Counted from the stretch's first letter, positions 2,468 to 46,258 are shown. The stretch: DNA of 64,000 bases from a virus (IMGVR_UViG_3300044729_003379:9727-73726); one strand, 5' to 3'. Made by a program: numbers and translations. The notes: generated from the letters alone by a model not told the origin.

Positions 2468-3973
2468 ATGTGGACAGAAGAATCAAACTCAAATTTATCT
2501 ACTAAAATTGCTGGTTCAATTCGCGTAATTGATTCTAGTGAGTTTAAAAAATACGGAATTACAGAACAATCTGTTGCTTCTGCTAGAAAAACCTTAATGC
2601 CCCCTTCTTTTGATGTAGAGAAGAATATTGACGTTCTTCCTGTTGTTTTTAATTTGGCTGTAGTAAACCGATTTAACGAAAACGATGACGCAATTAAGAC
2701 TTCCGTTGCAATGGAGTTGGTAAAACAATTTATCAATAAACCCATCAACATTGAACACATGAAGGATAAAATTGTTGGGCATATTATAAATGCTTCTTTT
2801 TCTGACAAACAACCAGAATACGAATATAACGAAATCGAAGCTTACAAAGACAGGAAAGACCCATTCTATATTTCCGCTGCTGGAATTATTTATCGTCATA
2901 TTTTTCCAAAATTAGCCGATGAAATTGTTGAAGCCTCTAACGAAAAAAGCGAAAAATATCAAAGCTTATCAACTTCTTGGGAAGTTGGTTTTAGAAATTA
3001 TACATTAGGAATCGGAGAAGGTTCTTTAGAAGAAGTTGAAGAACTGTCAGAAGAAGATGAATCTTATTCTAGTCTAAAAGATAATTTAAAGGCATATGGA
3101 GGAACTGGATATTCCAATAAAGGAAGAGTCAGAAGAATAATTAATGGTCCTGTTTATGGATTAGGCGTTGGTATTACTACTTCTCCTGCCGCAAATGTTA
3201 AGGGCGTTTATATAATGTTAGAGGAAGAAGAAAACCAAGAAGAAAACGAAGATAATATGGAAAATGAAAAAGAAAATGATATTAATAATAATGATTCTAT
3301 TTCCCAAGAACATAAAAAATATGTAAAAGCTAACAAACCATCTCTTTCAATGGACGAAAATCAGTTTAACCAACTTATCGCGAAGCTTGAAGAAGCCAAA
3401 GCTTCTTCAGAAATCGCCCTTCAGATCAAAAAAGTGTTTGATCAACAGACCGAATGGCAATCAAAAGCCGAGGCTGCTCAAAAAGATCTTGATTCGACCC
3501 GTTCGGAACTTGAGTCCATCAAAAACGAATTTAAACAAACTGCGGAAGAACTTGAATCTCTCAAGAGAGATCTTGAAGCTAAAGCCGCTGCTGAACTTTT
3601 CAATTCCAGAATCCAAACCATTCTTGAGAAATACGAACTGACCGAAGCTCAAGAGAAGGTTGTTATCGAAGATATCAAAAATCTTGATTCAAGCGAAGCC
3701 TCTTTCGAGAAGTTTCAAGAAAAGGCTGAAATTATTTTCTCCAAACAAAGCAAAGAGGCTCTTGCCTCTCTTGAAGAAGCAAAAAGAGCCGAAATTGAAA
3801 AGGCCGCAGAAAAACTCTTAGAATCCAAGGCTTCTACCTCCGAAGAAACCTTAGAACTTAAAACAGAAGAAGCGGAAGCCTCTTCTCTCCCCAACAACAC
3901 TGGAGAAGGTTCTCAAGAACTCACTCTCTTAGACAGAATTAAAAAAACCGGACTTCAAGTTTCAACCAACTAA
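2468..3973 (+). CDS. Prohead protease fused to coiled-coil scaffolding domain
   Basis: N-terminal FINKPINIEH / IVGHI / STSWEVGF / TSPAANV protease-like motifs; acidic linker; helical E/K-rich C-terminal half; synteny. Confidence 0.7.
   Translation: MWTEESNSNLSTKIAGSIRVIDSSEFKKYGITEQSVASARKTLMPPSFDVEKNIDVLPVVFNLAVVNRFNENDDAIKTSVAMELVKQFINKPINIEHMKDKIVGHIINASFSDKQPEYEYNEIEAYKDRKDPFYISAAGIIYRHIFPKLADEIVEASNEKSEKYQSLSTSWEVGFRNYTLGIGEGSLEEVEELSEEDESYSSLKDNLKAYGGTGYSNKGRVRRIINGPVYGLGVGITTSPAANVKGVYIMLEEEENQEENEDNMENEKENDINNNDSISQEHKKYVKANKPSLSMDENQFNQLIAKLEEAKASSEIALQIKKVFDQQTEWQSKAEAAQKDLDSTRSELESIKNEFKQTAEELESLKRDLEAKAAAELFNSRIQTILEKYELTEAQEKVVIEDIKNLDSSEASFEKFQEKAEIIFSKQSKEALASLEEAKRAEIEKAAEKLLESKASTSEETLELKTEEAEASSLPNNTGEGSQELTLLDRIKKTGLQVSTN
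3300..3327 (+). promoter_or_regulatory. Putative internal late promoter TTTCCCAAG-N13-TGTAAA for a nested scaffold protein (ATG 3350)
   Basis: Identical bipartite motif with identical spacing at 8674-8701 upstream of the tail tube gene. Confidence 0.55.
3350..3973 (+). CDS. Nested in-frame scaffolding protein (MDENQFNQL...)
   Basis: In-frame ATG at the start of the coiled-coil region, preceded by a promoter-like motif. Confidence 0.5.
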   Translation: MDENQFNQLIAKLEEAKASSEIALQIKKVFDQQTEWQSKAEAAQKDLDSTRSELESIKNEFKQTAEELESLKRDLEAKAAAELFNSRIQTILEKYELTEAQEKVVIEDIKNLDSSEASFEKFQEKAEIIFSKQSKEALASLEEAKRAEIEKAAEKLLESKASTSEETLELKTEEAEASSLPNNTGEGSQELTLLDRIKKTGLQVSTN

Positions 3974-23132: not shown

Positions 23133-25700
23133 ATGCCTAATTATGTAAATAACGCACCTTTGGGTTCTGCTTTTGGCGGAAAAATAGCTACATTAAATTA
23201 TAACTATTCTCCAAACGAGGGTCCATCTTCAGCAACAATTACAATAGTTAGTGAAAATAATAGATATATAGAACCTATTCTTCTTTCTAATTTTAATATT
23301 CCAATTTTAAATATTCCAATGGTGATTGTTGAGGTTCAATATAATGACGACAGCACAGCAAGAACATTACAAATAGAATTGATTGATAAAACCTCTTTAT
23401 ATCTTGATACTAATTTAATTCTTGTTAATGGTGTTCATTCATCAGGTGTAGAAGGTAATTCTAGCTCTTCAAATTCTTTTCATTTTTATCCAAAAACAAC
23501 AGGAACAATTAATAATAATTCATTTGGTAATAAGGGAAGGCTTTCTATAACTTCGGGAGGAAGTGGTGGAAGAAATTGTAGGTATATAGGTGGACTTAGA
23601 AGCACAGTAAAAGTTTCATCTGCTTGGGATGGGGATACCCAATTATTTAAAAATAATACACAACCATATACAACAGTTGTTTTTCAAGACAATAAATTCA
23701 GACAAGATTTAAGTGGAAAAAAAGCAGGTTCAATACTTCCAATTTTTCAAAAATTTGGAGATACTAGCAATTTTGAAGTTTCAAATGAATGGGGCTATAC
23801 TTTTAATCAATTATGTAATAATATTTCTATTCCAATAAGGAATAAACCAAATATTAACGATAATTATTATTTTAATCAAGCTGGAACATGTAGATCTGTA
23901 TTATCTGGTGTTCTTTCTTCTTTAGGAAAGAGTTTTTACATTAATCCTTTTGATGGAAGTATAAATATCATTGATAATGGTTTTATTAATCAGATTAATA
24001 GAACATTATCTTTAAAATATACTTCTTTACTCAAAGAGTCTTTTTCTGATAATTCTATTACATCTATAAATATAAAAAAGTCATGTAAAGAAACCACAGG
24101 AAGACATACTGTATTAACTGGTTCTTATGAAAACAATGTAGATAAATCAGGAGGTGGGGGTTCTGGAGATACAAATATTCCAGATAAACCACAATATAGA
24201 ACATTTTATAAATATTCAAATGTTGACGTTATTTCTCCAAGTGAAAGAAAGTTTTTCCAAAAAATACTTCCTTTGTTTTGGTTTAATTTTTCACAAAGAT
24301 CTGTTGATGATTTTATTTATGCATTAGCAAAATTAGAAGATCCTACTACTTGGTCAGAAAAAAGTGGTGATGAATCAATTTATTCTGGAAATACAGATTC
24401 TAATGGAAACACCATGATAGATAAAACAAATCCAAAAGCAACTTTAAGACCTTCTGATTTAAATAAATCTGGAGAAGATTTAGAGGCTTTATTAAGTTCT
24501 GAATATATAAGCATAATGTTGGAAAATATTTCAAGCGGAAATATTCCAGACAAATTTGATTTAAATCAAGAGATTGATATATACCCAAATACTAGAAGAG
24601 CAAAAGTTGGAGAAAATTTTACACTTAATGCTGCTGCTGTTTCTCCTTATGAAAAAATATCACCATATATTGAAGGTATAAACATGGCTTTATTTACTCT
24701 TCATGTTACTAAACCAATTTCAAAGAAAAAAGCCCTATCTATGAATTGGGCAAGTCCATCTAGTGGGCAAAAAGACCCAATTAATAATAATATAAAAATA
24801 GCTGGTCCATATGCATCTGATACAAAAATATCAGATATTCCAGAATTAGCTCCATTAAATTTTATTCTTTCTAGATTTGGAAAAGAAACAAAAATAACAA
24901 TAGGTAAAATGGCAAAAGATGCTGCTGGAAATTTTAGATCTAACCAATCTGGAGATGTTTCAACAGGTTATCATTTTATAGCAATAAAAGACATTGCTGC
25001 TATTCTTCCTAAGAATTTAGGAACAATTCCAAATGACATTATTAAATCTATTGAAATGAATGTTTTTTCAAGCGCACCAATAAATGAAAGTTCAACTGGT
25101 CCTATTTTGGCTCTAACAAAAAGAGGACAAACAAGTATAAAAAATATCGCAGAAAAAAATGCTCAAATATTTCAAGAAATTGTTGACAATATAAGAAGGT
25201 CTACAAATACAAATTTTAGAATTCCATATACTAAACTAGATGAAAATGACGCTTCTTATGAATATCCAGATAATACAGCATCTGAACCAGAATTACCAGA
25301 GGTAAAATCAATAAGAACAATACCAACAAAGCAACCAACATCTGGAGATGCTGGTATGACAAAAATTGAATTAGATACTTACCAAGGTTCAATAGAAGAT
25401 CTTAGTTATATTGATGATAGTTTCTTTAAAGAAACTCCGGGTCCATCTTTTGAAGCTTCAATTACTTTTTTTAGACCTCCAATAAAATCTGATTTAGATG
25501 TTTTTTCTGGTTTGTCTTCAATTTCTTGCTCATTTAAAGGAGATGGAGTAGAGACTAATGTTTCATATAGCACTAGAAATTATTTAAACATGGATAAATC
25601 TTTAGTTCAACAGCTTACAAGAGGAAGCTCTATTCCTGCTCCAAGATTTGGTCCAAATTTTATAAATAAACCAGCATTTATAAAAAATAGAAAATCATAA
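23133..25700 (+). CDS. Putative tail tip/hub protein
   Basis: 855 aa, last gene of the tail operon; N-terminal hub-like pattern (GTCRSVLSGVLSSLG.SFY). Confidence 0.45.
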   Translation: MPNYVNNAPLGSAFGGKIATLNYNYSPNEGPSSATITIVSENNRYIEPILLSNFNIPILNIPMVIVEVQYNDDSTARTLQIELIDKTSLYLDTNLILVNGVHSSGVEGNSSSSNSFHFYPKTTGTINNNSFGNKGRLSITSGGSGGRNCRYIGGLRSTVKVSSAWDGDTQLFKNNTQPYTTVVFQDNKFRQDLSGKKAGSILPIFQKFGDTSNFEVSNEWGYTFNQLCNNISIPIRNKPNINDNYYFNQAGTCRSVLSGVLSSLGKSFYINPFDGSINIIDNGFINQINRTLSLKYTSLLKESFSDNSITSINIKKSCKETTGRHTVLTGSYENNVDKSGGGGSGDTNIPDKPQYRTFYKYSNVDVISPSERKFFQKILPLFWFNFSQRSVDDFIYALAKLEDPTTWSEKSGDESIYSGNTDSNGNTMIDKTNPKATLRPSDLNKSGEDLEALLSSEYISIMLENISSGNIPDKFDLNQEIDIYPNTRRAKVGENFTLNAAAVSPYEKISPYIEGINMALFTLHVTKPISKKKALSMNWASPSSGQKDPINNNIKIAGPYASDTKISDIPELAPLNFILSRFGKETKITIGKMAKDAAGNFRSNQSGDVSTGYHFIAIKDIAAILPKNLGTIPNDIIKSIEMNVFSSAPINESSTGPILALTKRGQTSIKNIAEKNAQIFQEIVDNIRRSTNTNFRIPYTKLDENDASYEYPDNTASEPELPEVKSIRTIPTKQPTSGDAGMTKIELDTYQGSIEDLSYIDDSFFKETPGPSFEASITFFRPPIKSDLDVFSGLSSISCSFKGDGVETNVSYSTRNYLNMDKSLVQQLTRGSSIPAPRFGPNFINKPAFIKNRKS

Positions 25701-26555
25701 TATCCAAGAGTTTTCAGTTTTTTCAATTTCTTGAAAGTTATGATTTAAGAAGTGATATCTATAAAAGTTTTTCCAAACTCTGTGCGAGTTTATAAATGTT
25801 TTAAAAGTATCATAATCCATTTCTTTCAAGAAATAAATGAATCCTTTTAGAGATTCTAAGCTATTTGTATCAAAACCCTTTGAAACAGCTTCGCTTCTAA
25901 TAAACTGTCTTATCATTTCTGCTCTTTGAAATTGCTCAAATTGATTTTCCAATCCCAAAAGCAAATGATTTGATCTTCCATAAATCCAAGCGTATTTAGC
26001 TTCATGATTTATTTTGTTATCAAAAGGTCTACCTCCCTCTTCTCCATCTTTTATTCTCCAAGTGATTTCTTTCTTACTTTCATCGTGGGTGTTTTTGATA
26101 TCTATAGCCTGTTGTTGTGCGCCTACTAAACCCCAATGAGGACTTCCATTAAAAACCATAGAATCATTCCATTTGAAGGCAAAACCCTTTCCATAATTAA
26201 AAATAGACTTTATTCCATTGAAATCGTGGGCATAAATCCACTCTTTTATGTTTCTTGCCCATTTTTGATTAATTCTTTCCATAGAATCCCTCAAGATGAA
26301 CCAATCACCGTTCTTCATTGGCCCTTCTCGTAAGAAAGTATTCATCTGTAGGTCGTGATCGTTCGTCCAAGGTCTCAGGATGACAGAACCCGCTCCCTTT
26401 CTTTCTTGAAGCAATTTATAACAAGCATCGTCCTCATTGAAATCTCGACTATCATATCCAAAGATTAATCCATCAACATATTCCCAAATCGGGTCTGTTA
26501 ATTCTTTGATATTTTGGTATTCATTTTTATTTGTAATTCCACAAAGATAAATCAT
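25695..26555 (-). CDS. Glycosyltransferase family 2-like protein
   Basis: GT-A pattern WFILRDSMERI (variant of LDADE) and F.G.PHW; likely start MIYLCG at 26555. Confidence 0.55.
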   Translation of the reverse strand: MIYLCGITNKNEYQNIKELTDPIWEYVDGLIFGYDSRDFNEDDACYKLLQERKGAGSVILRPWTNDHDLQMNTFLREGPMKNGDWFILRDSMERINQKWARNIKEWIYAHDFNGIKSIFNYGKGFAFKWNDSMVFNGSPHWGLVGAQQQAIDIKNTHDESKKEITWRIKDGEEGGRPFDNKINHEAKYAWIYGRSNHLLLGLENQFEQFQRAEMIRQFIRSEAVSKGFDTNSLESLKGFIYFLKEMDYDTFKTFINSHRVWKNFYRYHFLNHNFQEIEKTENSWIL

Positions 26556-26557
26556 AA

Positions 26558-27346
26558 TCAATCCTCCCAATATTTAAAAACGTGGTCTTTCCATCCAAAC
26601 GGAACTTCTCCGTTTTCTGGCCAATTTCCAGAAATAGCCTTTTCCCATTGCTCATCGCTTAGTGGGGGAAAAGAGTATTTTTCTTTTGGAGTTTTTAAAC
26701 AGATGAGTTGTTTGGTGTCTGTTCTGTGTTTCCACATTGATCCGTCTGGATTTGTTCTAATGCTCCACTTTCCTCTATCTATAAATGGTGGGACTTTTTG
26801 GGAGCCGATTTCATATGTAACAGAAATATAAGAAAGGCCACGCTCTTCGATGTTTTCTTGAACGCATTGTTCAGTCCATTTTATATGATCCCAAGGACCG
26901 GGACCACCAATGCTTTTTGGAATACTGTTATAAAAATCTACAGAAATAAACTGCGCCCTCTCACTGTATTTACCGTGTCCTTGATCTCCTGAGAGGTCGA
27001 TGTGTGAAATTTTATATTTCTGTAATAGATTTTCAAATTCTTCTATTTCTTTTTGTGTTATTTTTGTATAGAGAAGATGATCAACTTGAATATAAAATGC
27101 GTATTTGCTTTTGCATTGAGCAAATAATTGTATTGTTCCTGCTCCACAACCAACATTTGTTGTGTTATTAATTACCTCATCTTGATCCGACAACAACCCT
27201 TCTTCTTTAAAAGAGTCTGCATATCTTTCCCCGCCATTATTTAATATGGTAATCTTCTTGTCAAACAAGGCGTTTACTTTTAACGAAAACAACAAATCTC
27301 TCAATTCATTTTCTCTATTAAAATCAAGAATTAATATTTCAGTCAT
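26558..27346 (-). CDS. Glycosyltransferase family 2
   Basis: ILILDFNR..L..LL.SL, ITILNNG, N.G.GAG and KYAFYIQVD GT2 motifs. Confidence 0.7.
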   Translation of the reverse strand: MTEILILDFNRENELRDLLFSLKVNALFDKKITILNNGGERYADSFKEEGLLSDQDEVINNTTNVGCGAGTIQLFAQCKSKYAFYIQVDHLLYTKITQKEIEEFENLLQKYKISHIDLSGDQGHGKYSERAQFISVDFYNSIPKSIGGPGPWDHIKWTEQCVQENIEERGLSYISVTYEIGSQKVPPFIDRGKWSIRTNPDGSMWKHRTDTKQLICLKTPKEKYSFPPLSDEQWEKAISGNWPENGEVPFGWKDHVFKYWED

Positions 27347-27761
27347 CAGATTTTTCTCTTTTAAACAATGGGCCAGATAAGTCTACTGATATTCCATTTT
27401 TTTCTATTTTAGTTGGCTTGTCGTGAAAGTGTTTTACTTTATTTTTCTTTTGATAATCGTCAAAATACTTTCTTTTAACAGGATCTTCGTGACCAAGTTT
27501 GTCCTTTCTTTTTTCAGAAAGTTCTTTAGAAGCATCCCACAAATCTCCAACAGTTCCTTTTCTTCTTCCGGTAATTTCTGTTGCTTTATTTAAATCAAAT
27601 GGATTGATTGTTCCAATTCTTTCTGCGCTAACTTGGGGTGCGGTTAAAACTCTCTTCCACTCCAATCCTTCTTCATCAAAATATTCGTGTTTGTCATTCA
27701 TTCTTTGAATGACTTCTACATACTCGTCTTTGTTTGGGTGCTTGTAGATATAGGTTGGCAT
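27339..27761 (-). CDS. FmdB-like small protein
   Basis: MPTYIY N-terminus and EVIQRM / WKRVL pattern of the FmdB zinc-ribbon family, but cysteines are absent. Confidence 0.5.
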   Translation of the reverse strand: MPTYIYKHPNKDEYVEVIQRMNDKHEYFDEEGLEWKRVLTAPQVSAERIGTINPFDLNKATEITGRRKGTVGDLWDASKELSEKRKDKLGHEDPVKRKYFDDYQKKNKVKHFHDKPTKIEKNGISVDLSGPLFKREKSDD

Positions 27762-28867
27762 TATAATTGTTTTGCAATGTTTAAAATGCTATTGACTGTT
27801 TTTTCGTATGTGAAAAATTCGCGAAGTTCTTTTCCGCTATCTTCTTTGTAATTATTTAAAAAGATATCTTCAGATTCTTTGATTGCGGCAGAAATAGATT
27901 CTGGTTTAAAGTAATGAAAACAACCTTGGTTATATTCCATTCCACGATGGAAGAAAACCCCATCATAACATTCTTCGATTCCACTCGGTTCAAGTTTAAT
28001 TAAATTTGAATTACTAAATTCGTTAACCCAATCTAGATGTGCGCCACCCAATCCGACCACACAAACCTTATTCATACAAGCAGCGTTAAAGCTTGGAAGA
28101 TTCCATCCCTCATTCCCACAACATCCAGAAAGATCAATGTCAATAGAATTAATGAATTGATTTACTTGTGAATTTGTTTCAAGAGTGGGTAGAAAGTTGA
28201 TATTACTGTAGTGCTTTCCTTCTAGGGTATTGATGATTATTTGATCAAAGGTTTCTTTTGGAAAGAAGGGGTTATTGATTAGGCATGTTAACTGATATTT
28301 GTTGTTGTTACCATAAAGCTTCAACCACTCTCTAATTACAGTCTGTGTATTTTTTCTCTTTTCTAATTTTCCACAAATTCCGAAATGAATTACGTCTGGC
28401 TTTTTTACGTCTTCAACATAAAAATCTTCATCGAAACCAAGAGGCACGAAATAAAATTTGTCTGGATTTACTTTTCCAGTCTTTAAGAAAGCGTCAATAG
28501 CTTCGGTGGAGGAAAAAATAACAGCATCTTGTTGATTTACAAGATTAATTTCTGTTTCTGTTGGCATATCAACCTCATAAAACGAGAAAAGAATTTGCTT
28601 TTTTGCAACCCTTCTTTCACAACCGTTGATATGCCAAACTTTTAAAGCGATATCTTCTGCGCTAAATTCTTTATTGAAGTTTTGTATTTTATTAACAATC
28701 TCTCTTTTGAGATTTTCATTTGCGCGATCAAAAGATTGAAAGGAAATTTGGTTTACACATTGAGGTAAACACATTGATTTTAATTCACCTCTCCTTGATA
28801 ATTCTCTTGCAATGTTGAATGTAACGTTTCCAAGAGATAGGTTATTGATTGGTCCTTCAAGAATCAT
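27761..28867 (-). CDS. Glycosyltransferase family 4 (GT-B)
   Basis: VPLGFD, GKLEKRKN and EGWNLP motifs. Confidence 0.8.
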   Translation of the reverse strand: MILEGPINNLSLGNVTFNIARELSRRGELKSMCLPQCVNQISFQSFDRANENLKREIVNKIQNFNKEFSAEDIALKVWHINGCERRVAKKQILFSFYEVDMPTETEINLVNQQDAVIFSSTEAIDAFLKTGKVNPDKFYFVPLGFDEDFYVEDVKKPDVIHFGICGKLEKRKNTQTVIREWLKLYGNNNKYQLTCLINNPFFPKETFDQIIINTLEGKHYSNINFLPTLETNSQVNQFINSIDIDLSGCCGNEGWNLPSFNAACMNKVCVVGLGGAHLDWVNEFSNSNLIKLEPSGIEECYDGVFFHRGMEYNQGCFHYFKPESISAAIKESEDIFLNNYKEDSGKELREFFTYEKTVNSILNIAKQL

Positions 28868-29433
28868 GATATTGTATCCTTTATTTCTTTTAAAATTGTT
28901 TTACCTATTTGTTCTATTCTTTGTGGCTTTAAATTAAATTGATCAGCAATGTCTATAAGCTTTCTTTCTTTTTGAAATCTTTCGTAAAAGATTTTGCAAT
29001 CTCTTTCGCAAAACTTCTTTTTCACAACGTTATCAATTATAGAGCAGATTTCCTTTTTTTCAAGCTCATGAACAATTGATTTGTTGTCTTCTATATTGTT
29101 TACATCAAGCTCTAAATCGTCAATAAATTCTTTGTCTGCCTTTTTGTTTTCTGAGGTTCTTTTTGATTTGCATTTATACTTGGTTATGTTTGCAAGCCAA
29201 GTATGAAATTGAGATTTCTCATTAGAGAAGGAGGAAATTGCATCCCAGAAAAATGAATATTTGTCTTCAAGAATTTCCTGCATCCAAAAATTCTTTCTAT
29301 TTTGAGGACAATATCTTGATACCGTGTCTACAAAAATTCCAGAGTGTCTTTCTATTAGTTCGTTAAAGGCTTCGTTGCTTTGTTCTTCCTTCGCCATTCT
29401 GACCAATTCATTGTCATCCAAATCTATAATCAT
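28864..29433 (-). CDS. RNA polymerase sigma factor (sigma70 family, regions 2 and 4 only)
   Basis: DNELV...AFNELIERH, SQFHTWL and C-terminal HTH LIDIADQFNLKPQRIEQI. Confidence 0.8.
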   Translation of the reverse strand: MIIDLDDNELVRMAKEEQSNEAFNELIERHSGIFVDTVSRYCPQNRKNFWMQEILEDKYSFFWDAISSFSNEKSQFHTWLANITKYKCKSKRTSENKKADKEFIDDLELDVNNIEDNKSIVHELEKKEICSIIDNVVKKKFCERDCKIFYERFQKERKLIDIADQFNLKPQRIEQIGKTILKEIKDTIS

Positions 29434-30041
29434 AAGAAAAATCCAATGTATTTATCTAAAATTTCCTTGCATTTTTTAGAGATCTCAGAATTCATCTTAC
29501 TTTCTTCTTCAAAAGAAGCAATAGAAATAACCTCTGACGCGGCTTTTGCCAATAATGGTTCGTTTTTCTTTTCGAATTCATTATTTGGCTTAATAGGTTT
29601 TCCGTCAATTGCTTTTCTTTTTAAATGAATATGCAATCCCTTATTTTCCTTCACCCAAAATGATTCATCTTTTTCTTCTGATGCAAATCTTAAATCACTA
29701 ACAATGCAAACGTCAATATCTGACATTGTGTTTAGTTTTTTACACAGATAATCGATCCAATATTGATTATTTGTCATGTTTCTTCTGATATTTCCATGAG
29801 CAATCAACAAGGGTCGAATTAGCTCCTTTTCTTTTGGATCTTCGGTCCAAACGGAGATTCCGTATTTTTCTTGAACAAACTCTTCAAGCTCCTGTCGGAC
29901 GCCTTCTGCAAAAGAAAATTGTTTGCATCTTAAATTTGGAAACTCCCTTCCAATATCAATTATCATTTGTCGAGTAAATGAATCTTTCCCAACTCTTGCT
30001 GGGCCAGAGAAAGCAATTATTTTTTGTTTTACTTTTTGCAT
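29430..30041 (-). CDS. Deoxynucleoside monophosphate kinase
   Basis: IIAFSGPARVGKDS P-loop, SFA, RPLLIAHG, W and VSDLRF motifs; likely start MQKVKQ at 30041. Confidence 0.8.
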   Translation of the reverse strand: MQKVKQKIIAFSGPARVGKDSFTRQMIIDIGREFPNLRCKQFSFAEGVRQELEEFVQEKYGISVWTEDPKEKELIRPLLIAHGNIRRNMTNNQYWIDYLCKKLNTMSDIDVCIVSDLRFASEEKDESFWVKENKGLHIHLKRKAIDGKPIKPNNEFEKKNEPLLAKAASEVISIASFEEESKMNSEISKKCKEILDKYIGFFL

Positions 30042-30048
30042 AATCAAA

Positions 30049-30531
30049 TTATTTACCAGTTGAACCAAAACCTCCATGCCCTCTGTTGGAGTCGGATAAT
30101 GCTGTTGCAGGATACAAGACTGATTCAACTTCTTTAAAGAAGAAGAGTTGGGCTATTTTATCTCCTTTTTTGTAAATGTATTTTTCATCGATTCTGATAT
30201 CGATACTATAAGAATTTTCCGATAGACAAAAATCAGTTTCCGAAGGTAAGTATCGGAACCTTAGTTTAATTTCCCCTCTGTAATTGTTGTCTATGATTGC
30301 AGGAGAATTAGCCAACATTAAGCGAGTGTTACTGATGCTACTTCTTGGCACAATTAATGCATGAACGTCTTTGCTTAGTGGGTTGATAAATAGATTTGTG
30401 CCATATTCGATATACCTTCTTTCTGGATCGAAAAAAGGATCTGTTGACGCCACTAGATCGTATCCAAGGTCTCCCGGCCTTGGAAGCTTGATGTTTTTGT
30501 AACCTTCTTTTAAGACAGAAATATCCTCCAT
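30049..30531 (-). CDS. dut: dUTPase (trimeric)
   Basis: GYDL, PRSS, IIDNNYRGEI, IAQL and RGHGGFGSTG motifs. Confidence 0.95.
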   Translation of the reverse strand: MEDISVLKEGYKNIKLPRPGDLGYDLVASTDPFFDPERRYIEYGTNLFINPLSKDVHALIVPRSSISNTRLMLANSPAIIDNNYRGEIKLRFRYLPSETDFCLSENSYSIDIRIDEKYIYKKGDKIAQLFFFKEVESVLYPATALSDSNRGHGGFGSTGK

Positions 30532-30536
30532 ATGGG

Positions 30537-30565
30537 AGATTAGTATAGTTTTAGCAAAAAGTCAA
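30537..30565 (-). promoter_or_regulatory. Sigma70-type promoter of the dut-kinase-sigma-GT operon
   Basis: Minus strand TTGACT-17-TAATCT, 5 nt before the dut ATG. Confidence 0.55.
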
Positions 30566-30598: not shown

Positions 30599-30627
30599 TT
30601 GACAAACCCAAAAATATCCCATATAAT
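30599..30627 (+). promoter_or_regulatory. Perfect consensus sigma70 promoter
   Basis: TTGACA (30599)-17-TATAAT (30622) with an upstream AT tract. Confidence 0.8.
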
Positions 30628-30845
30628 ACGTCACATAGACGACGTAAATGTTACGTCGTAACAGTTACGTCGTAACAGTTACGATACTATATAATATATT
30701 TATGTTGCGAGCTTGCGAGCAACATGGTAGCGAACGAAGAGAGCTACCATAATACGTCACAACGACGACGTAACGTATACGACGCATCGTTACGTCTATG
30801 TAACGTAATTGCGTCGTATAAATTGAAAAATAAGATTTTTCAATT
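30623..30845. repeat. Repeat and hairpin cluster, candidate replication origin or structured ncRNA
   Basis: 25-bp direct repeats, tandem 14-bp palindromic units, GA-mismatch hairpins and a long inverted repeat (see findings). Confidence 0.7.
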
Positions 30846-30896
30846 TTTCTCTTTACAAATCGGACTTTTTATTGTAAGATAGGTGACGCCTAAATT

Positions 30897-31886
30897 ATGA
30901 AAGAAAAGAAGAGGGATTTGTTTGTTGAACGCGCCCATTTTAAACCATTCGATTATCCTGAGTGTGAACAGTTTTGTGATGCAATTAACGAGTCTTATTG
31001 GACGCACAAAGAATGGTCCTTTTCCCAAGATGTTCAACAGTTTCACATAGAACTTGATGATTATCAAAGAGAGATTATTAAGAAGTGTCTCCTTCTTATT
31101 TCTCAGGTAGAAGTTTCTGTCAAAACTTTTTGGGGCAATCTGTATAGACACGTTCCTCTTCCAGAAATTAACATGGTCGGGGCAACATTTTCGGAAAGCG
31201 AGGTCCGTCATGAAAGAGCATATTCCCACCTTCTTGAAAAACTGGGCCTCAACGAAGAATTTGAAAAGATTTACGATATTCCAGCCGTAATTGACAGACA
31301 CAATTACTTGAAAAGATACAAAGACTATTCTAACGCCAGATTAGAAGAAAAGTTTCTAAAATCAATCATCCTTTTTTCTTTATTCATTGAAAACGTGTCC
31401 TTGTTTTCTCAGTTCTTCATCATTATGTCTTTTAATAAACACAGAAAGATGTTGAAAGATATCAACAATGCTGTCGCCGCGACAAGCAAAGAAGAAGCAA
31501 TTCATGGAGCCTTCGGTAGTTGGTTGATTAACCAAATCAAAGAAGAACACCCCGAATTTTTTACGGACGAACTTAAATCAATGATTGAAAATTATTGTTT
31601 AAAAGCTTTTACCGCTGAAGAAAAGGTTCTTGATTGGATTTTTGATCAAGGAGATTCTGATTTCATTAAAAAAGACCAAGTTAAGGAATTTATCAAAAAT
31701 AGATTAAATTATTCCTTGACAGGAATAGGTCTTAACGCTATATTCGAAGTAGACAAAGAAGTTATCAATAAAACAAAGTGGTTTGATGAAGAATTGTTAA
31801 GCGATGTTCATGTTGACTTTTTCGACCAAAGACCAACCGCATATTCAAGAAAAAACAAATCAATTACCGCTGACGATCTTTTTTGA
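30897..31886 (+). CDS. nrdB: Ribonucleotide reductase class I beta subunit
   Basis: Ferritin-like ligands E72, ExxH (E102/H105), Y109, ENVSLFSQF and KEEAIH; C-terminal DFF..R...Y. Confidence 0.95.
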   Translation: MKEKKRDLFVERAHFKPFDYPECEQFCDAINESYWTHKEWSFSQDVQQFHIELDDYQREIIKKCLLLISQVEVSVKTFWGNLYRHVPLPEINMVGATFSESEVRHERAYSHLLEKLGLNEEFEKIYDIPAVIDRHNYLKRYKDYSNARLEEKFLKSIILFSLFIENVSLFSQFFIIMSFNKHRKMLKDINNAVAATSKEEAIHGAFGSWLINQIKEEHPEFFTDELKSMIENYCLKAFTAEEKVLDWIFDQGDSDFIKKDQVKEFIKNRLNYSLTGIGLNAIFEVDKEVINKTKWFDEELLSDVHVDFFDQRPTAYSRKNKSITADDLF

Positions 31887-37928: not shown

Positions 37929-39056
37929 ATGCACCTTTCAACTTTATACGCTAGAGACTTAGGGGTTTTTCCGAGTAAACCTATAATTAAAGAACACTTC
38001 TTTCCACTTCCTTGTGAAAAATATATTACATTTCACAACTCTGAAAAAATTCAATCAAAATCTTATTCTTACTGGACAGAGGTTTTTGATATTCTAAAGA
38101 AATACCTAGACCCTTTTGGGATTAAAATCGTCCAAGTAGGAGCCAAGGAAGATAAGAAAGTAGAGGGTGTTCATTATTACTTGAACAACACGACGTTTAA
38201 GCAATCATTTTTCATTATAAAAAACGGACTTCTTCATCTTGGGATAGATTCAAGTCCCGCACATATTGCTTCCGCATATAATAAACCAACGGTTTCAATC
38301 TATGCACATACATACGCAAATACCTGTTTTCCATTATGGAATGAAAATAAGATAATGATAGAACCAGAGAGAGGAAGAACCAAGCCTTCCTTTTCTTTAG
38401 TTGAAAACCCAAAAACGATTGACAAGATTGAACCGGAAGTAATAGTTCAAGCAACACTTAATCTATTGGGAATAAATCAAACAATTACATATAGAACATT
38501 AAACATTGGAAAGTTTTTCCTAGACAAAGAGATCAATGTAATTCCAGACGAAATCGTTCCGCAGGTAGATGTTGACAACGCATCAATAAATATTCGTTTA
38601 GACATGATTCATGACGAGTCTTTCTTGATCAAGTTCTTAAATAAGAATAGTTGCAATATAAACATTTATTGCTCAAATCCGATAGAAAATACAAAAGTTT
38701 TAATGTCTTATAAATCTAAGATTAATAAGATTAATTATTATTCCAATGCGTTTAATGCAGATTTTGTTTATTTTTTAACATCAAACGTTTTCGATTTAAA
38801 ACTGCTTTGCACTTCGCCAGATTCTTTAAACGAACAACGATTGAATTTCTTTGATCACGAAATTGATTTATTTGACTTGGTTAAAATCTCACAGGAAAAT
38901 AAATCAAAGTATTTCGAATTAGTTAAAAATGGTATAAAAATCAAAACAGGCAGAATTTATGTAAAGGGCCAAGAGCAATTTAAAACCATAGGAGAAAATT
39001 TCGATGATTGGAAATTTTGGCTTGACTTTGATCACATGATGGTTTATAATGAGTAA
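37929..39056 (+). CDS. GT9 (heptosyltransferase-like) C-lobe protein
   Basis: KSYSYW, IVQVG and LGIDSSPAHIASAYNKPTVSIY GT9 signature. Confidence 0.75.
   Translation: MHLSTLYARDLGVFPSKPIIKEHFFPLPCEKYITFHNSEKIQSKSYSYWTEVFDILKKYLDPFGIKIVQVGAKEDKKVEGVHYYLNNTTFKQSFFIIKNGLLHLGIDSSPAHIASAYNKPTVSIYAHTYANTCFPLWNENKIMIEPERGRTKPSFSLVENPKTIDKIEPEVIVQATLNLLGINQTITYRTLNIGKFFLDKEINVIPDEIVPQVDVDNASINIRLDMIHDESFLIKFLNKNSCNINIYCSNPIENTKVLMSYKSKINKINYYSNAFNADFVYFLTSNVFDLKLLCTSPDSLNEQRLNFFDHEIDLFDLVKISQENKSKYFELVKNGIKIKTGRIYVKGQEQFKTIGENFDDWKFWLDFDHMMVYNE
39022..39050 (+). promoter_or_regulatory. Sigma70-type promoter
   Basis: TTGACT-17-TATAAT, 8 nt before ATG 39059. Confidence 0.7.
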
Positions 39057-43714: not shown

Positions 43715-45248
43715 GTCGTTCGAATTAGAAAGAAAGGTTTTATCTGGGCTTTTACAGCACCCAAAATCTTGGTCTGAAGTTTCAACTTTCTTGGTTGAAG
43801 AAGACTTCTACGCTGAAGACAGCAAGGTTCATATAACCTTGTTTAAGATGATTAGGAATGCATTAAATAGTAAAGAAGCTATTGATGACACCATTCTGAT
43901 TGATCGTCTAGCCAGACTCAATACGACTTTTCCAGATTCTATTGATCGAGACGAATACATTAGGTCTTTGGTTTTCAATAAAATTTCAACAGATGTTTTC
44001 TTAAACTCAGTCAAAGAGCTTAAAAAATACACCTTCAAACGAAAGGCTTTAAACATTTGTAATAAAATAGAACAATTCACAAAAACAGTAGACCCATCAA
44101 AACCCTATTCTTTTATTGTAGAAGAAATTGATAGAATTTACAATAATGATATTCGTGGATTTGAAATGGGAGAAGCCAAACTTGTAAATTTGGCCAAGAT
44201 TGCAGAAGAGATTATTGAAGACAGGGGAGACAATCCACCAGAAGAAGTTGGGGCAATGGGTCCATTCCCAACCATTAATAAAATTTATGGTTCTCTTGTG
44301 AGGCCGGGGAACTGCACTTGTTTTGCCGCTAGAGCTAAAAGTGGAAAAACCACGTTAATGATAGATATGTTATTGAAGATCTCTTACGAAAATAAGTTGC
44401 CGATTCTGCATTTCGATAATGGGGAAATGAGTGAAGAGGAACTCGTTTTTAGAATGGTCTCTGGAATATCTGGTGTTCCCGTTTATCTTCTTGAAAGTGG
44501 CAAATGGAGAACTCACGGATACAAGGATCTTTCCGCCAAGGAAGTCGTTAGCCGTGTTCGGGCGGTATGGGAAAGAATGAAGGGTATCACGATTCTTTAT
44601 GAGAACGTAGCAGGAATGACATCGGAAGAGATGGTCTCCCTTCTTAAAAGAATTTACTTTTCAGAAATTGGAAGAGGCAATCCTCTCATCTTTTCCTTTG
44701 ACTATCTCAAGACAGATTTCAACAATCTAGGAAAAGGTTCTGATTGGGCTTTTGTTGGAAAACTACTCCACCATTTTAAACAAACAATTAGCAGAGAACT
44801 CAAATTCGACGGTAAACCAACAGTAGCTATGGTAACGTCTGTTCAAACAAACAGGTCTGGCATTGTTACAAATAGAAATTCGGATACAGTTGTCGATGAC
44901 GAAAGCGTTATTGCGTTATCTGACAACATCATTCAATTCGTTTCTCACCTATTCCTTCTTAGGAAGAAGACAATGGATGAAATTGTTGAAGAAGGACCAG
45001 AGTTTGGCACCCACAAGTTAAAATGCTTGGCAGCAAGACATTTAGGAGAAGATTCTTTTGGTCACATTAATCCTGTTGATTGGGTTGATGGTAGCAAAAA
45101 AGATAATTGGATCAACTTAAAATTTGACAACTTTAATGTTGAAGAAAAGGGCGATGCTCGCGATATTATTAGAGCAATAAACGGAGAAGATGTTGGAGCA
45201 ATTAGATCAATGGGGGCAGAAAATGAACTTCCAGAATCTTTAAGATGA
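43707..45248 (+). CDS. dnaB: Replicative DNA helicase (DnaB family)
   Basis: N-terminal ERKVLSGLL...DFY; Walker A ARAKSGKT; GEMS; DYL; Q.NR. Confidence 0.9.
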   Translation: MIKSFELERKVLSGLLQHPKSWSEVSTFLVEEDFYAEDSKVHITLFKMIRNALNSKEAIDDTILIDRLARLNTTFPDSIDRDEYIRSLVFNKISTDVFLNSVKELKKYTFKRKALNICNKIEQFTKTVDPSKPYSFIVEEIDRIYNNDIRGFEMGEAKLVNLAKIAEEIIEDRGDNPPEEVGAMGPFPTINKIYGSLVRPGNCTCFAARAKSGKTTLMIDMLLKISYENKLPILHFDNGEMSEEELVFRMVSGISGVPVYLLESGKWRTHGYKDLSAKEVVSRVRAVWERMKGITILYENVAGMTSEEMVSLLKRIYFSEIGRGNPLIFSFDYLKTDFNNLGKGSDWAFVGKLLHHFKQTISRELKFDGKPTVAMVTSVQTNRSGIVTNRNSDTVVDDESVIALSDNIIQFVSHLFLLRKKTMDEIVEEGPEFGTHKLKCLAARHLGEDSFGHINPVDWVDGSKKDNWINLKFDNFNVEEKGDARDIIRAINGEDVGAIRSMGAENELPESLR

Positions 45249-46258
45249 CCGATTATGGATCAATTTTAAGAAACATAGGCTATAATCTGATCGATAGGGG
45301 TTCTTATTGGCAGACAAACGCTATCTTCCGCAATGGAGACAACAAAACATCAATCAGAATTTACAAAGACACCGGAGTTTGGAGCGACTTTGTTGAAGGA
45401 AACAAACCTCTCCCATTCGAAACATTACTAAAGAAAACATTAAAGACAAATGATGTATCAAAATACATAGAACAACAAAATACGTCATTTACCTTTTACA
45501 AAAAAATAGATAAACTTTTGAAAGAAGAAAAAACATTTCACGATAGTTGCTTAAAAAAACTATTACCAGACAGGCACTATTTTGAGTCAAGAGGCATCCC
45601 TAGTTGGGTTCAAGAAGAATACCAATGCGGGTTGGCAACTTCTGGCAAGCTATATCAACGCATCGTTTTTCCAGTTAGGAGAAATGATGGGAAAATACAT
45701 GGATTCATTGGCAGAAAGGTTGTAGACAACAAACCAGAATCTCCAAAGTGGTTGAATTTTGGAAAAACCTGTGATTGGTTTTATCCATATTTTTCTGTAG
45801 AAGGCGTTGAGGAACAAATAGAAGAAGAAAAGAGGGTTTTTGTAATAGAATCTATCGGAGATTCTATGTCTTTATATAGATCGGGTGTAAAGAACAACAT
45901 CGTTTGTTTTACAAACAATATTAAACCAAAAATAACATCGAGATTATCAAATCTTTCGGTAGATATTGTTTTATCATTAAATAATGATTCTGGCCAAAAC
46001 AGAGGATTCGACGGGGCTTTGGCAAGTTTTATAAAACTTGCTGATACAATCGATTTAGAAAGAATATGGTTTTGTCCACCTCCAGTTGAAGATTTTGGAA
46101 TGATGAATGATCAACAAATTCGTGAATGGAGAAGTTCTTTAGATTTTTCAAATTCTTCGAAGGAGTCTCTTCTTCAATTGATTGGTTATGCTCCAAAAGC
46201 AAAACTTGCAGCAAACTTGCTTCCAAAATTAAAGAAAATAGAAAAAAGCTTGGAATGA
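45245..46258 (+). CDS. dnaG: DNA primase (DnaG/TOPRIM)
   Basis: YFESRGI, RIVFPV, GFIGR, PKW.N and TOPRIM VIESIGD; follows the helicase. Confidence 0.8.
   Translation: MTDYGSILRNIGYNLIDRGSYWQTNAIFRNGDNKTSIRIYKDTGVWSDFVEGNKPLPFETLLKKTLKTNDVSKYIEQQNTSFTFYKKIDKLLKEEKTFHDSCLKKLLPDRHYFESRGIPSWVQEEYQCGLATSGKLYQRIVFPVRRNDGKIHGFIGRKVVDNKPESPKWLNFGKTCDWFYPYFSVEGVEEQIEEEKRVFVIESIGDSMSLYRSGVKNNIVCFTNNIKPKITSRLSNLSVDIVLSLNNDSGQNRGFDGALASFIKLADTIDLERIWFCPPPVEDFGMMNDQQIREWRSSLDFSNSSKESLLQLIGYAPKAKLAANLLPKLKKIEKSLE

Follow-up and report, generated by a model that had tools for sequence, protein, structure and literature searches.

The dut-nrdB interval and hairpins A and B

The window is a stretch of 64,000 nucleotides of viral DNA, bases 9727-73726 of the 73.7-kb IMG/VR virus record IMGVR_UViG_3300044729_003379; the element described here occupies positions 30599-30845 of the window. 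The record has 35% G+C and is estimated to be 51% complete, so the genome would measure about 145 kb. The element occupies part of the 365 bp that separate dut, whose ATG is at 30531 on the minus strand, from nrdB, whose ATG is at 30897 on the plus strand. It marks the point at which two gene blocks diverge: dut and the genes downstream of it are on the minus strand, nrdB and the nrdA that follows it on the plus strand, and Pfam confirms the identities. The neighbouring genes encode dUTPase, a deoxynucleoside monophosphate (dNMP) kinase-like protein, a sigma-like protein, glycosyltransferases, NrdB and NrdA; no transposase is found among the genes near the element. RecA-like, DnaB-like, DnaG-like and DnaE genes lie 11-22 kb downstream, the DnaB-like and DnaG-like ones about 13 kb away, with the DnaG-like protein encoded at 45245-46258.

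Two promoters on the plus strand border the element. P1 (30599-30627, TTGACA-17-TATAAT) agrees with the sigma70 consensus at 12 of 12 positions, has a predicted start near 30634 and leads into about 225 non-coding bases, the next start codon being 270 nt away; this bears out the perfect promoter firing into non-coding DNA that an earlier, sequence-only reading of the window had reported. P2 (30852-30880, TTTACA-17-TAAGAT, 9/12) is the proximal promoter of nrdB. The dut promoter (30537-30565, minus strand) consists of TTGACT (30565-30560), a 17-nt spacer and TAATCT (30542-30537), followed after 5 nt by the ATG at 30531, a geometry that reads as leaderless. The geometry is the same in the relative G001 (TTGACT-17-TATAGT-5 nt-ATG); L050 has TTGACT-16-TATACT. 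In a census of this phage and three relatives, near-consensus promoters normally stop 6-13 nt 5' of a start codon. Examples in the window are at 39022, 41632, 49515, 58341 (minus strand) and 59378, and one such promoter in G002 drives a tRNA directly. Judged by this spacing, many genes of the phage and its relatives, dut included, appear to be expressed as leaderless mRNAs. P1 is the exception to this layout in the clade. Because promoters of the clade abut the 5' end of their product and no open reading frame (ORF) lies behind P1, the predicted product of P1 is non-coding.

Comparison of the window with its relatives reveals no conserved ORF between P1 and P2. The short ORFs at 30665-30787 (minus strand) and 30724-30882 (plus strand) and the ATG inside hairpin A are rejected as coding: in L050 the short ORFs of the element have other lengths and sequences than in the window, and the stem substitutions are non-synonymous. 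Rfam 15 yields no family match at the gathering score in the whole window, and none in the relatives; the best sub-threshold score is that of RAGATH-35, 20.5 bits against a gathering score of 38.9. No tRNA or tmRNA is found in the window.

The centre of the element is formed by two abutting hairpins on the plus strand. Hairpin A (30702-30725) reads ATGTTGC-GA-GC-TT-GC-GA-GCAACAT, and hairpin B (30724-30750) reads ATGGTAGC-GAACGAAGAGA-GCTACCAT. A covariance model, R1, built from one group of relatives alone (group B, L049-L051), finds window positions 30700-30753 with 49.3 bits and an E-value of 1.4e-8, so that the structure is conserved in relatives, one of the points on which the sequence-only reading had let its claim depend. 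The covariation analysis it had proposed yields compensatory pairs in both hairpins. In the R1 alignment hairpin A of the window differs from that of group B by one such pair, U-A to C-G; hairpin B differs from TTGCTAT-GAGCGAAGCGA-ATAGCAA of L050 by three compensatory pairs and one inserted pair, with the loop pattern GA-NC-GAA-GN-GA conserved. These pairs were read from the covariance-model alignment; MAFFT alignments misplaced the 3' arm of hairpin B. R1 recognises a single site in the window and one per relative, in agreement with motif scans of G000-G005, and its search of the phage genomes finds no additional copy of the A/B module. Lineages with Dut proteins of just 56% identity share the same order, position and orientation of the two hairpins. 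Since position, order and orientation are kept and the stems change by compensation, the hairpins appear to have descended vertically under selection.

The 217-nt stretch folds at -73.8 kcal/mol, compared with -48.7 +/- 4.4 kcal/mol for shuffled sequences (z -5.7, reached by 0 of 200), so that the cluster exceeds chance expectation. The CpG richness noticed earlier is likewise real: the observed/expected ratio is 3.0 against 0.83 genome-wide, the maximum of all 250-nt segments of the 73.7-kb record. Nearest-neighbour folding scores both strands nearly alike, because the energy models give G-A pairs no credit. Support for the earlier statement that the G-A pairs, and with them the clamps of hairpins A and B, form on the plus strand only therefore comes from what is known about the chemistry of GAA mini-hairpins and of sheared G-A pairs in tandem, and not from computed energy, which is strand-neutral.

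The remaining features, like the hairpins, lie where the sequence-only reading had placed them. The first copy of the 25-bp direct repeat (30623-30647, plus strand, ATAATACGTCACA-NN-GACGACGTAA) overlaps the P1 -10 hexamer and start site; the second (30749-30773, plus strand) matches it in exact 13-mers, and extended copies of 36 nt are 81% identical. Sequence next to the start is repeated downstream at 106-126 nt in three lineages (122 nt in L049, 106 nt in L053). Tandem palindromes follow: GTTACGTCGTAACA recurs with 14-nt spacing over 30637-30686, and within 30637-30683 there are four dyad-symmetric sites with 14-bp spacing and the core TACGNCGTA / TTACGTCGTAA, iteron-like or operator-like in character. 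As a single strand the four TACGNCGTA sites form one long hairpin of about 16 bp. Allowing at most one mismatch, TTACGTCGTAA has five matches in the 64 kb on both strands, against 0.53 expected, and four of these fall on the two sites in the element. The TACGNCGTA motif is absent from the other promoters of the 64-kb window.

The AT tract (30684-30702) is 19 nt long; described earlier as an AT-only spacer, it is present and holds one C. The nested inverted repeat (30776-30820, TATACGACGCA...TGCGTCGTATA, inner CGTTAC/GTAACG) contains degenerate TACGNCGTA sites; its 11-nt arms (30776-30786 and 30810-30820) are 100% complementary, and its DNA fold has -15.3 kcal/mol (z -5.5). The last feature is an AT-only hairpin with a T-run (30820-30850, plus strand), with 12-nt arms (30820-30846) that are 100% complementary, followed by TTTTCTCTTT. 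It is weakly terminator-like and went unflagged in the terminator scan because its stem has no G-C pairs. A promoter-plus-stem-loop unit is duplicated at both ends of the element.

Relatives of the phage and recurrence outside the clade

NrdB-guided searches of viral and metagenome contigs yield five lineages; no close relative of the phage and no near match to the element is found in the GenBank phage collection. Group B (L048-L051; NrdB 87% and Dut 56% identical) carries a homologous element beside dut, in the order P1 (TTGACA-17-TATACT), a 5' hairpin, an AT tract, hairpin A, hairpin B, ACGTA-rich palindromes (one of them TATACGACGTATA), an AT hairpin and P2. Its 5' hairpin has G-T/G-U pairs on the plus strand only, and the plus strand folds 6-7 kcal/mol better. 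The counterpart of the AT tract, TTAATAATAATATAT, stands directly 5' of hairpin A in L048-L051 and measures 15-16 nt. Group C (L053/G005, L015 and L052) has P1, an A-like hairpin with a CTTG apex and a B-like hairpin (CCA-GCGAAGC-TGG), then tandem 14-nt TACGNCGTA units, a GCGAAGC hairpin on the other strand, a 12-bp stem followed by T7, and P2. The 12-bp stem of L053 contains G+C and occupies the place of the AT-only hairpin of the window; no AT tract is found beside the repeats of L053. At the equivalent place, groups D and E (G001 and G002) show long gaps rich in hairpins, with P2 and with no consensus-like P1. P1 is kept as TTGACA-17-TATACT in L050 and L053, and P2 is present in L003, L050 and L053. 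Exact GCGAAGC apices occur in L048-L051, G002 and L053, and CUUG-type apices in plus orientation in the window, L050, L053 and G002. In G002 the core of hairpin A points the opposite way to the other hairpins, and a different stem carries the exact GAGCGAAGCGA loop. Among the relatives, then, what is conserved beside dut is the layout; the sequence itself changes.

Tandem 14-nt units with the TACGNCGTA core number 5.5 in L053 and 6.5 in L015; three copies stand at the 5' end of the L052 contig and one in L048/L049, and repeats of this type are absent in G001, G002 and G003. The unit is perfectly dyad-symmetric, and 9-11 bp of it are kept across lineages whose surroundings cannot be aligned, in 1 to 6.5 copies. 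The dyad of the 14-nt unit of group C (L053) forms no stable RNA hairpin by itself. By its dyad symmetry, sequence conservation, variable copy number and want of a hairpin of its own in group C, the unit has the character of a site in double-stranded DNA that a dimeric protein would recognise.

The element stays with dut and not with nrdB: genes are inserted before nrdB in L048, L049, L051, L053 and G001. An NrdR box or a B12 riboswitch of nrdB is rejected on this ground. The inserts between the element and nrdB differ by lineage (L049:780-1760; L053:5520-6000; G001:24606-25378), and one encodes a protein of 157-162 aa that is PD-(D/E)XK nuclease-like by motif reading. Each insert is preceded by a copy of the AT-hairpin-plus-promoter unit, which suggests that promoter/stem-loop cassettes mediate local gene shuffling. 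A repeat RNA of the type III toxin-antitoxin kind is also rejected, the 14-nt units being too short; the PD-(D/E)XK-like gene downstream in L053 is under a promoter of its own and has no counterpart in the window. A packaging (pac) site is unlikely, the terminal repeats of G004 lying far from its nrdB region.

In the distant relatives G003 and G004 the gene order is different. The block of dut, the dNMP-kinase gene, the sigma-like gene and genes for 368 and 140 aa (window 25695-30531) is inverted in the lineage of the window with respect to both; the homologues of the dut block at G004:103392-106076 are upstream of nrdB and on the same strand, and the block is not inverted in G003 or G004. The hairpin element therefore sits at an inversion junction. 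G003 and G004 also carry a promoter-driven non-coding region of about 330 nt that heads the dNMP-kinase gene block (minus strand; L037:15150-15510, G003:35150-35525; L044:6850-7242, G004:106850-107242). Between the two, 10 of 53 predicted pairs are compensatory, and Rfam gives no match even at E<=1; by its sequence this region is a candidate new structured RNA.

Outside the clade the hairpins recur separately. The GAGCGAAGCGA loop is shared with G002, Acinetobacter plasmids and Ackermannviridae. A plasmid BLAST search with the group B module finds TTGCTGT-GAGCGAAGCGA-ACAGCAA in small Acinetobacter plasmids of rep_cluster_1219, which is hairpin B of L050 with one compensatory pair. Two further GAGCGAAGCGA copies accompany it, three lying within about 110 nt in one plasmid, and four 22-bp iterons follow about 135 bp downstream of the cluster, with repM 270-300 bp downstream of it. 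In the Acinetobacter ursingii plasmid NZ_CP089049.1 (L252:600-960, also L255) no feature is annotated at the cluster. The 18-mer TATGAGCGAAGCGAATAG, the apex of hairpin B, occurs in 46 Ackermannviridae records and is identical in nearly all. Its genomic position was inspected in one of these records, that of Dickeya phage LIMEstone1 (HE600015.1, about 86490-86590; L253:590-680), where it lies between a uvsW-side ORF and the gp45 clamp gene, has a stem of only 3-4 bp and adjoins an ATAAATG-CCGAAGG-CATTTAT hairpin.

The hairpin A core is present in the Vibrio plasmid pL9064, in a non-coding region upstream of mobC and a relaxase gene. The hairpin A 20-mer GTNGCGAGCTTGCGAGCNAC has more than 120 matches in bacterial genomes (L132-L251), against about 17 expected by arithmetic on the collection size with equal base use. 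At least 19 copies occur in one Acidimicrobiales metagenome-assembled genome (MAG), within a multi-hairpin repeat of 125-180 nt and often at contig ends; further families occur in Verrucomicrobia/Planctomycetes (PVC), Patescibacteria (near tRNAs), Clostridiales, Actinomadura and Myxococcota. The 20-mer often caps lineage-specific stems. A strict B-like motif follows hairpin A in 4 of 122 bacterial matches, among the matches listed. The A/B loci outside the clade match no Rfam family, and the literature searched contains neither the 14-mer core, as DNA or as RNA, nor the 20-mer. A combined A+B pattern inside a helix-turn-helix gene of the high-GC virus L129 was judged low-complexity chance. Hairpins A (GYNGC-GA-GC-TT-GC-GA-GCNRC) and B (stem-GA-GC-GAA-GC-GA-stem) are put forward, with considerable doubt, as an undescribed and widespread class, the GA-clamped mini-hairpins, which would serve as single-stranded DNA priming or loading signals or as recognition sites of one conserved enzyme. 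Such a class would span large environmental phages, Ackermannviridae, small plasmids in which it lies by iterons or relaxase genes, and repeats in at least six bacterial phyla.

Readings of the element

The element is tentatively read, short of even confidence and by analogy, as a replication origin or priming site that is coupled to transcription, in the form of a promoter-driven, non-coding control region. Host RNA polymerase starting from P1 would cross the repeats and help to open the AT tract or leave an RNA-DNA hybrid. The displaced plus strand could then fold into the GA-clamped mini-hairpins A and B, which would resist single-stranded DNA-binding protein and mark a site at which the phage helicase (DnaB-like) and primase (DnaG-like) enter or priming starts. 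The TACGNCGTA palindromes may bind a dimeric protein, a candidate initiator or regulator, and the one site overlapping the P1 -10/start region could gate firing. The AT hairpin and T-run would end the transcript before P2. Support for the origin reading comes from the Ceduovirus-like layout, from the iteron-like sites beside the AT tract with their variable copy number, from the covariation of hairpins A and B, from hairpin B near repM and iterons and in the replication module of Ackermannviridae, from GCGAAGC at primase sites and from the DnaB-like and DnaG-like genes of the phage. The origin or primase/helicase loading site proposed by the sequence-only reading is accordingly supported in part, by layout analogy, motif recurrence and gene content.

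Several observations weigh against an origin. The apex of hairpin B in the window is a degenerate ACGAAGA, with one C-G pair and a GAA loop, compared with the canonical GCGAAGC. The AT tract is short, about 19 bp, and the element has a GC skew of 0.04, without the G-richness that favours R-loops. No initiator gene is recognised among the neighbours. The GC-skew check that had been proposed for an origin does not single out the element: the signal follows gene strand only, both in the window and in the complete relative G004, and is uninformative on the origin because it is confounded by gene strand. G003 and G004 are without the element and carry a different structured non-coding region. The same record also has a second repeat-laden non-coding area upstream of the window (G000:C1:1-2300), so that the first 2.3 kb of the record could equally be the origin or a regulatory region. 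This area holds a 36-nt tandem repeat (x3) at the contig start, TATATCGC runs, four TGTTCAA-N-TTGAACA palindromes and three AACTCGTTCATTTTCAACGAGTTAC hairpins, and a small gene is duplicated near the record start (about 1600-1780 and 2840-3000). Finally, a gene for a structured RNA would account just as well for the promoter, the covariation and the terminator-like hairpins, and plus-strand G-U-compatible changes and CUUG apices are also expected of a plain RNA gene.

This is the main rival reading, possible although doubtful: a free-standing or cis-acting structured RNA with no replication role, in which P1 would produce a multi-hairpin RNA of about 200 nt ended by the AT hairpin and T-run. 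In trans, the repeated hairpins could make the RNA a sponge or decoy for a protein; in cis, it could be a put-like antiterminator made of two abutting hairpins before a terminator. The RNA reading is consistent with the consensus P1 kept in three lineages, with clade promoters that abut the 5' end of their product, be it a leaderless ORF or a tRNA, and with the L053 unit closed by a stem and T7 before the next promoter. The compensatory pairs of hairpins A and B, the strand bias of the group B 5' hairpin, the common orientation of the CUUG-type apices and the other promoter-driven region of G003/G004, with its compensatory pairs, point the same way. Against it stands the TACGNCGTA unit: a strict dyad, conserved in sequence and present in varying numbers, it is what a site in double-stranded DNA typically looks like, and in L053 it is unable to fold as an RNA hairpin. 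A GCGAAGC apex is far less stable as RNA, the hairpin A core is inverted in G002, hairpin B has homologues in plasmid origin regions, the terminator of the window is an all-AT stem, and there is no Rfam family match.

The same inversion in G002 and the recurrence outside the clade could instead indicate selfish or structural hairpins like repetitive extragenic palindromic (REP) sequences or miniature inverted-repeat transposable elements (MITEs), settled in a permissive gap and acting at most as terminators, mRNA stabilisers or insulators. The promoter-plus-stem-loop unit at the two ends of the element resembles the promoter/stem-loop cassettes of T4-type phages. The excess of hairpin A 20-mers in bacterial genomes, with the copies of the Acidimicrobiales MAG, and the three GAGCGAAGCGA copies in one plasmid are of the kind expected, and a repeat-derived PCR (polymerase chain reaction) primer of Mycobacterium intracellulare contains GAGCGAAGCGA (PMC10117815). 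This explanation is nevertheless unlikely: the window and each relative have one copy, no transposase is nearby, the strict B-like motif follows hairpin A in few of the bacterial matches listed, and the kept position, order and orientation with compensatory changes argue for vertical descent under selection. A very unlikely explanation is an operator array, in which the TACGNCGTA palindromes would bind a phage or host transcription factor controlling the dut promoter, P1 and P2, the hairpins being incidental terminators. The perfect dyad symmetry of the sites, the site-like repeat over the P1 -10/start region in the window and group B, and the place between dut and nrdB suit it, but most sites are not over promoters, being located 10-190 bp downstream of the start point, the motif is missing from the other promoters of the window, and the covarying hairpins A and B with their recurrence in plasmid origins are left unexplained.

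Origins of large uncultured phages are almost never mapped, and the locus is a concrete, testable candidate with a signature of its own: a promoter without a gene, dyad iterons, an AT tract, GA-clamped mini-hairpins and a second promoter. If the hairpin motifs mark priming or loading sites, they could locate phage and plasmid origins and single-strand initiation signals from sequence alone. If the RNA reading is true, a new non-coding phage RNA, supported by covariation, is encoded here.

Comparison with known systems

A lambda-type origin, an iteron origin with transcriptional activation, has repeats with a period of about 20 bp and an AT tract of about 40 bp, and lies inside the initiator gene. 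The element resembles it in that a strong promoter precedes regular dyad-symmetric repeats, which an AT-rich tract and a palindrome follow. It differs by a period of 14 bp, an AT tract of about 19 bp, an intergenic position and the absence of an identified initiator gene. REP sequences and REPINs consist of short imperfect palindromes, and the hairpin A 20-mer is multi-copy in some bacterial genomes; the phage genomes, in contrast, have a single copy at a fixed position, and no tyrosine transposase is seen. Acinetobacter RepM plasmids have a near-identical hairpin B near plasmid iterons and repM; their iterons are of an unrelated kind, they carry a rep gene, which is missing here, and the plasmid hairpin is without annotated function.

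GCGAAGC and GCGAAAGC mini-hairpins occur at the G4 primase site, CCGAAGG in ssiA of RSF1010, and related hairpins in N4 promoters; the GCGAAGC DNA mini-hairpin melts at 76.5 C and r(GCGAAAGC) at 39 C (PMC13037366). Strand-specific hairpins with GCGAAGC-type or CCGAAGG-type caps, the exact GCGAAGC of the relatives and the DnaG-like gene of the phage are points of likeness to the G4 and ssiA signals. The ACGAAGA apex of the window is a difference, and neither a flanking tandem G-A clamp nor the GC-TT-GC apex seen in hairpin A is described for those signals, which act on single strands of phages and plasmids, whereas the element lies inside a large double-stranded DNA phage.

In Ceduovirus the origin is defined as the non-coding DNA that separates PE1 from PE2, the first two early promoters, within the gap of divergent early and late modules (PMC7150918). 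The non-coding PE1 transcript is required, and no ORF or ribosome-binding site follows PE1; the origin types (c2, bIL67 and 923) are mutually dissimilar and support plasmid replication without phage proteins (PMC7150918). The distance from promoter to promoter is about 330 nt in the Lactococcus phage c2 record and 225 nt in the element. There is no sequence similarity between the two, and iteron-like palindromes and GA-clamped mini-hairpins are not reported for c2. The c2 origin is proven by plasmid replication assays, whereas the element is a candidate, and the non-coding transcript of c2 is not hairpin-dense (z -0.17 against -5.7 in the element), which is a further point against the origin reading. 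Both are non-coding, lie between promoters of the same direction, the first of which has no ORF, and sit within a gap of divergent modules; in both, the architecture persists from lineage to lineage although the type of sequence changes. The likeness of the element to the Ceduovirus origin is an analogy in layout, not membership.

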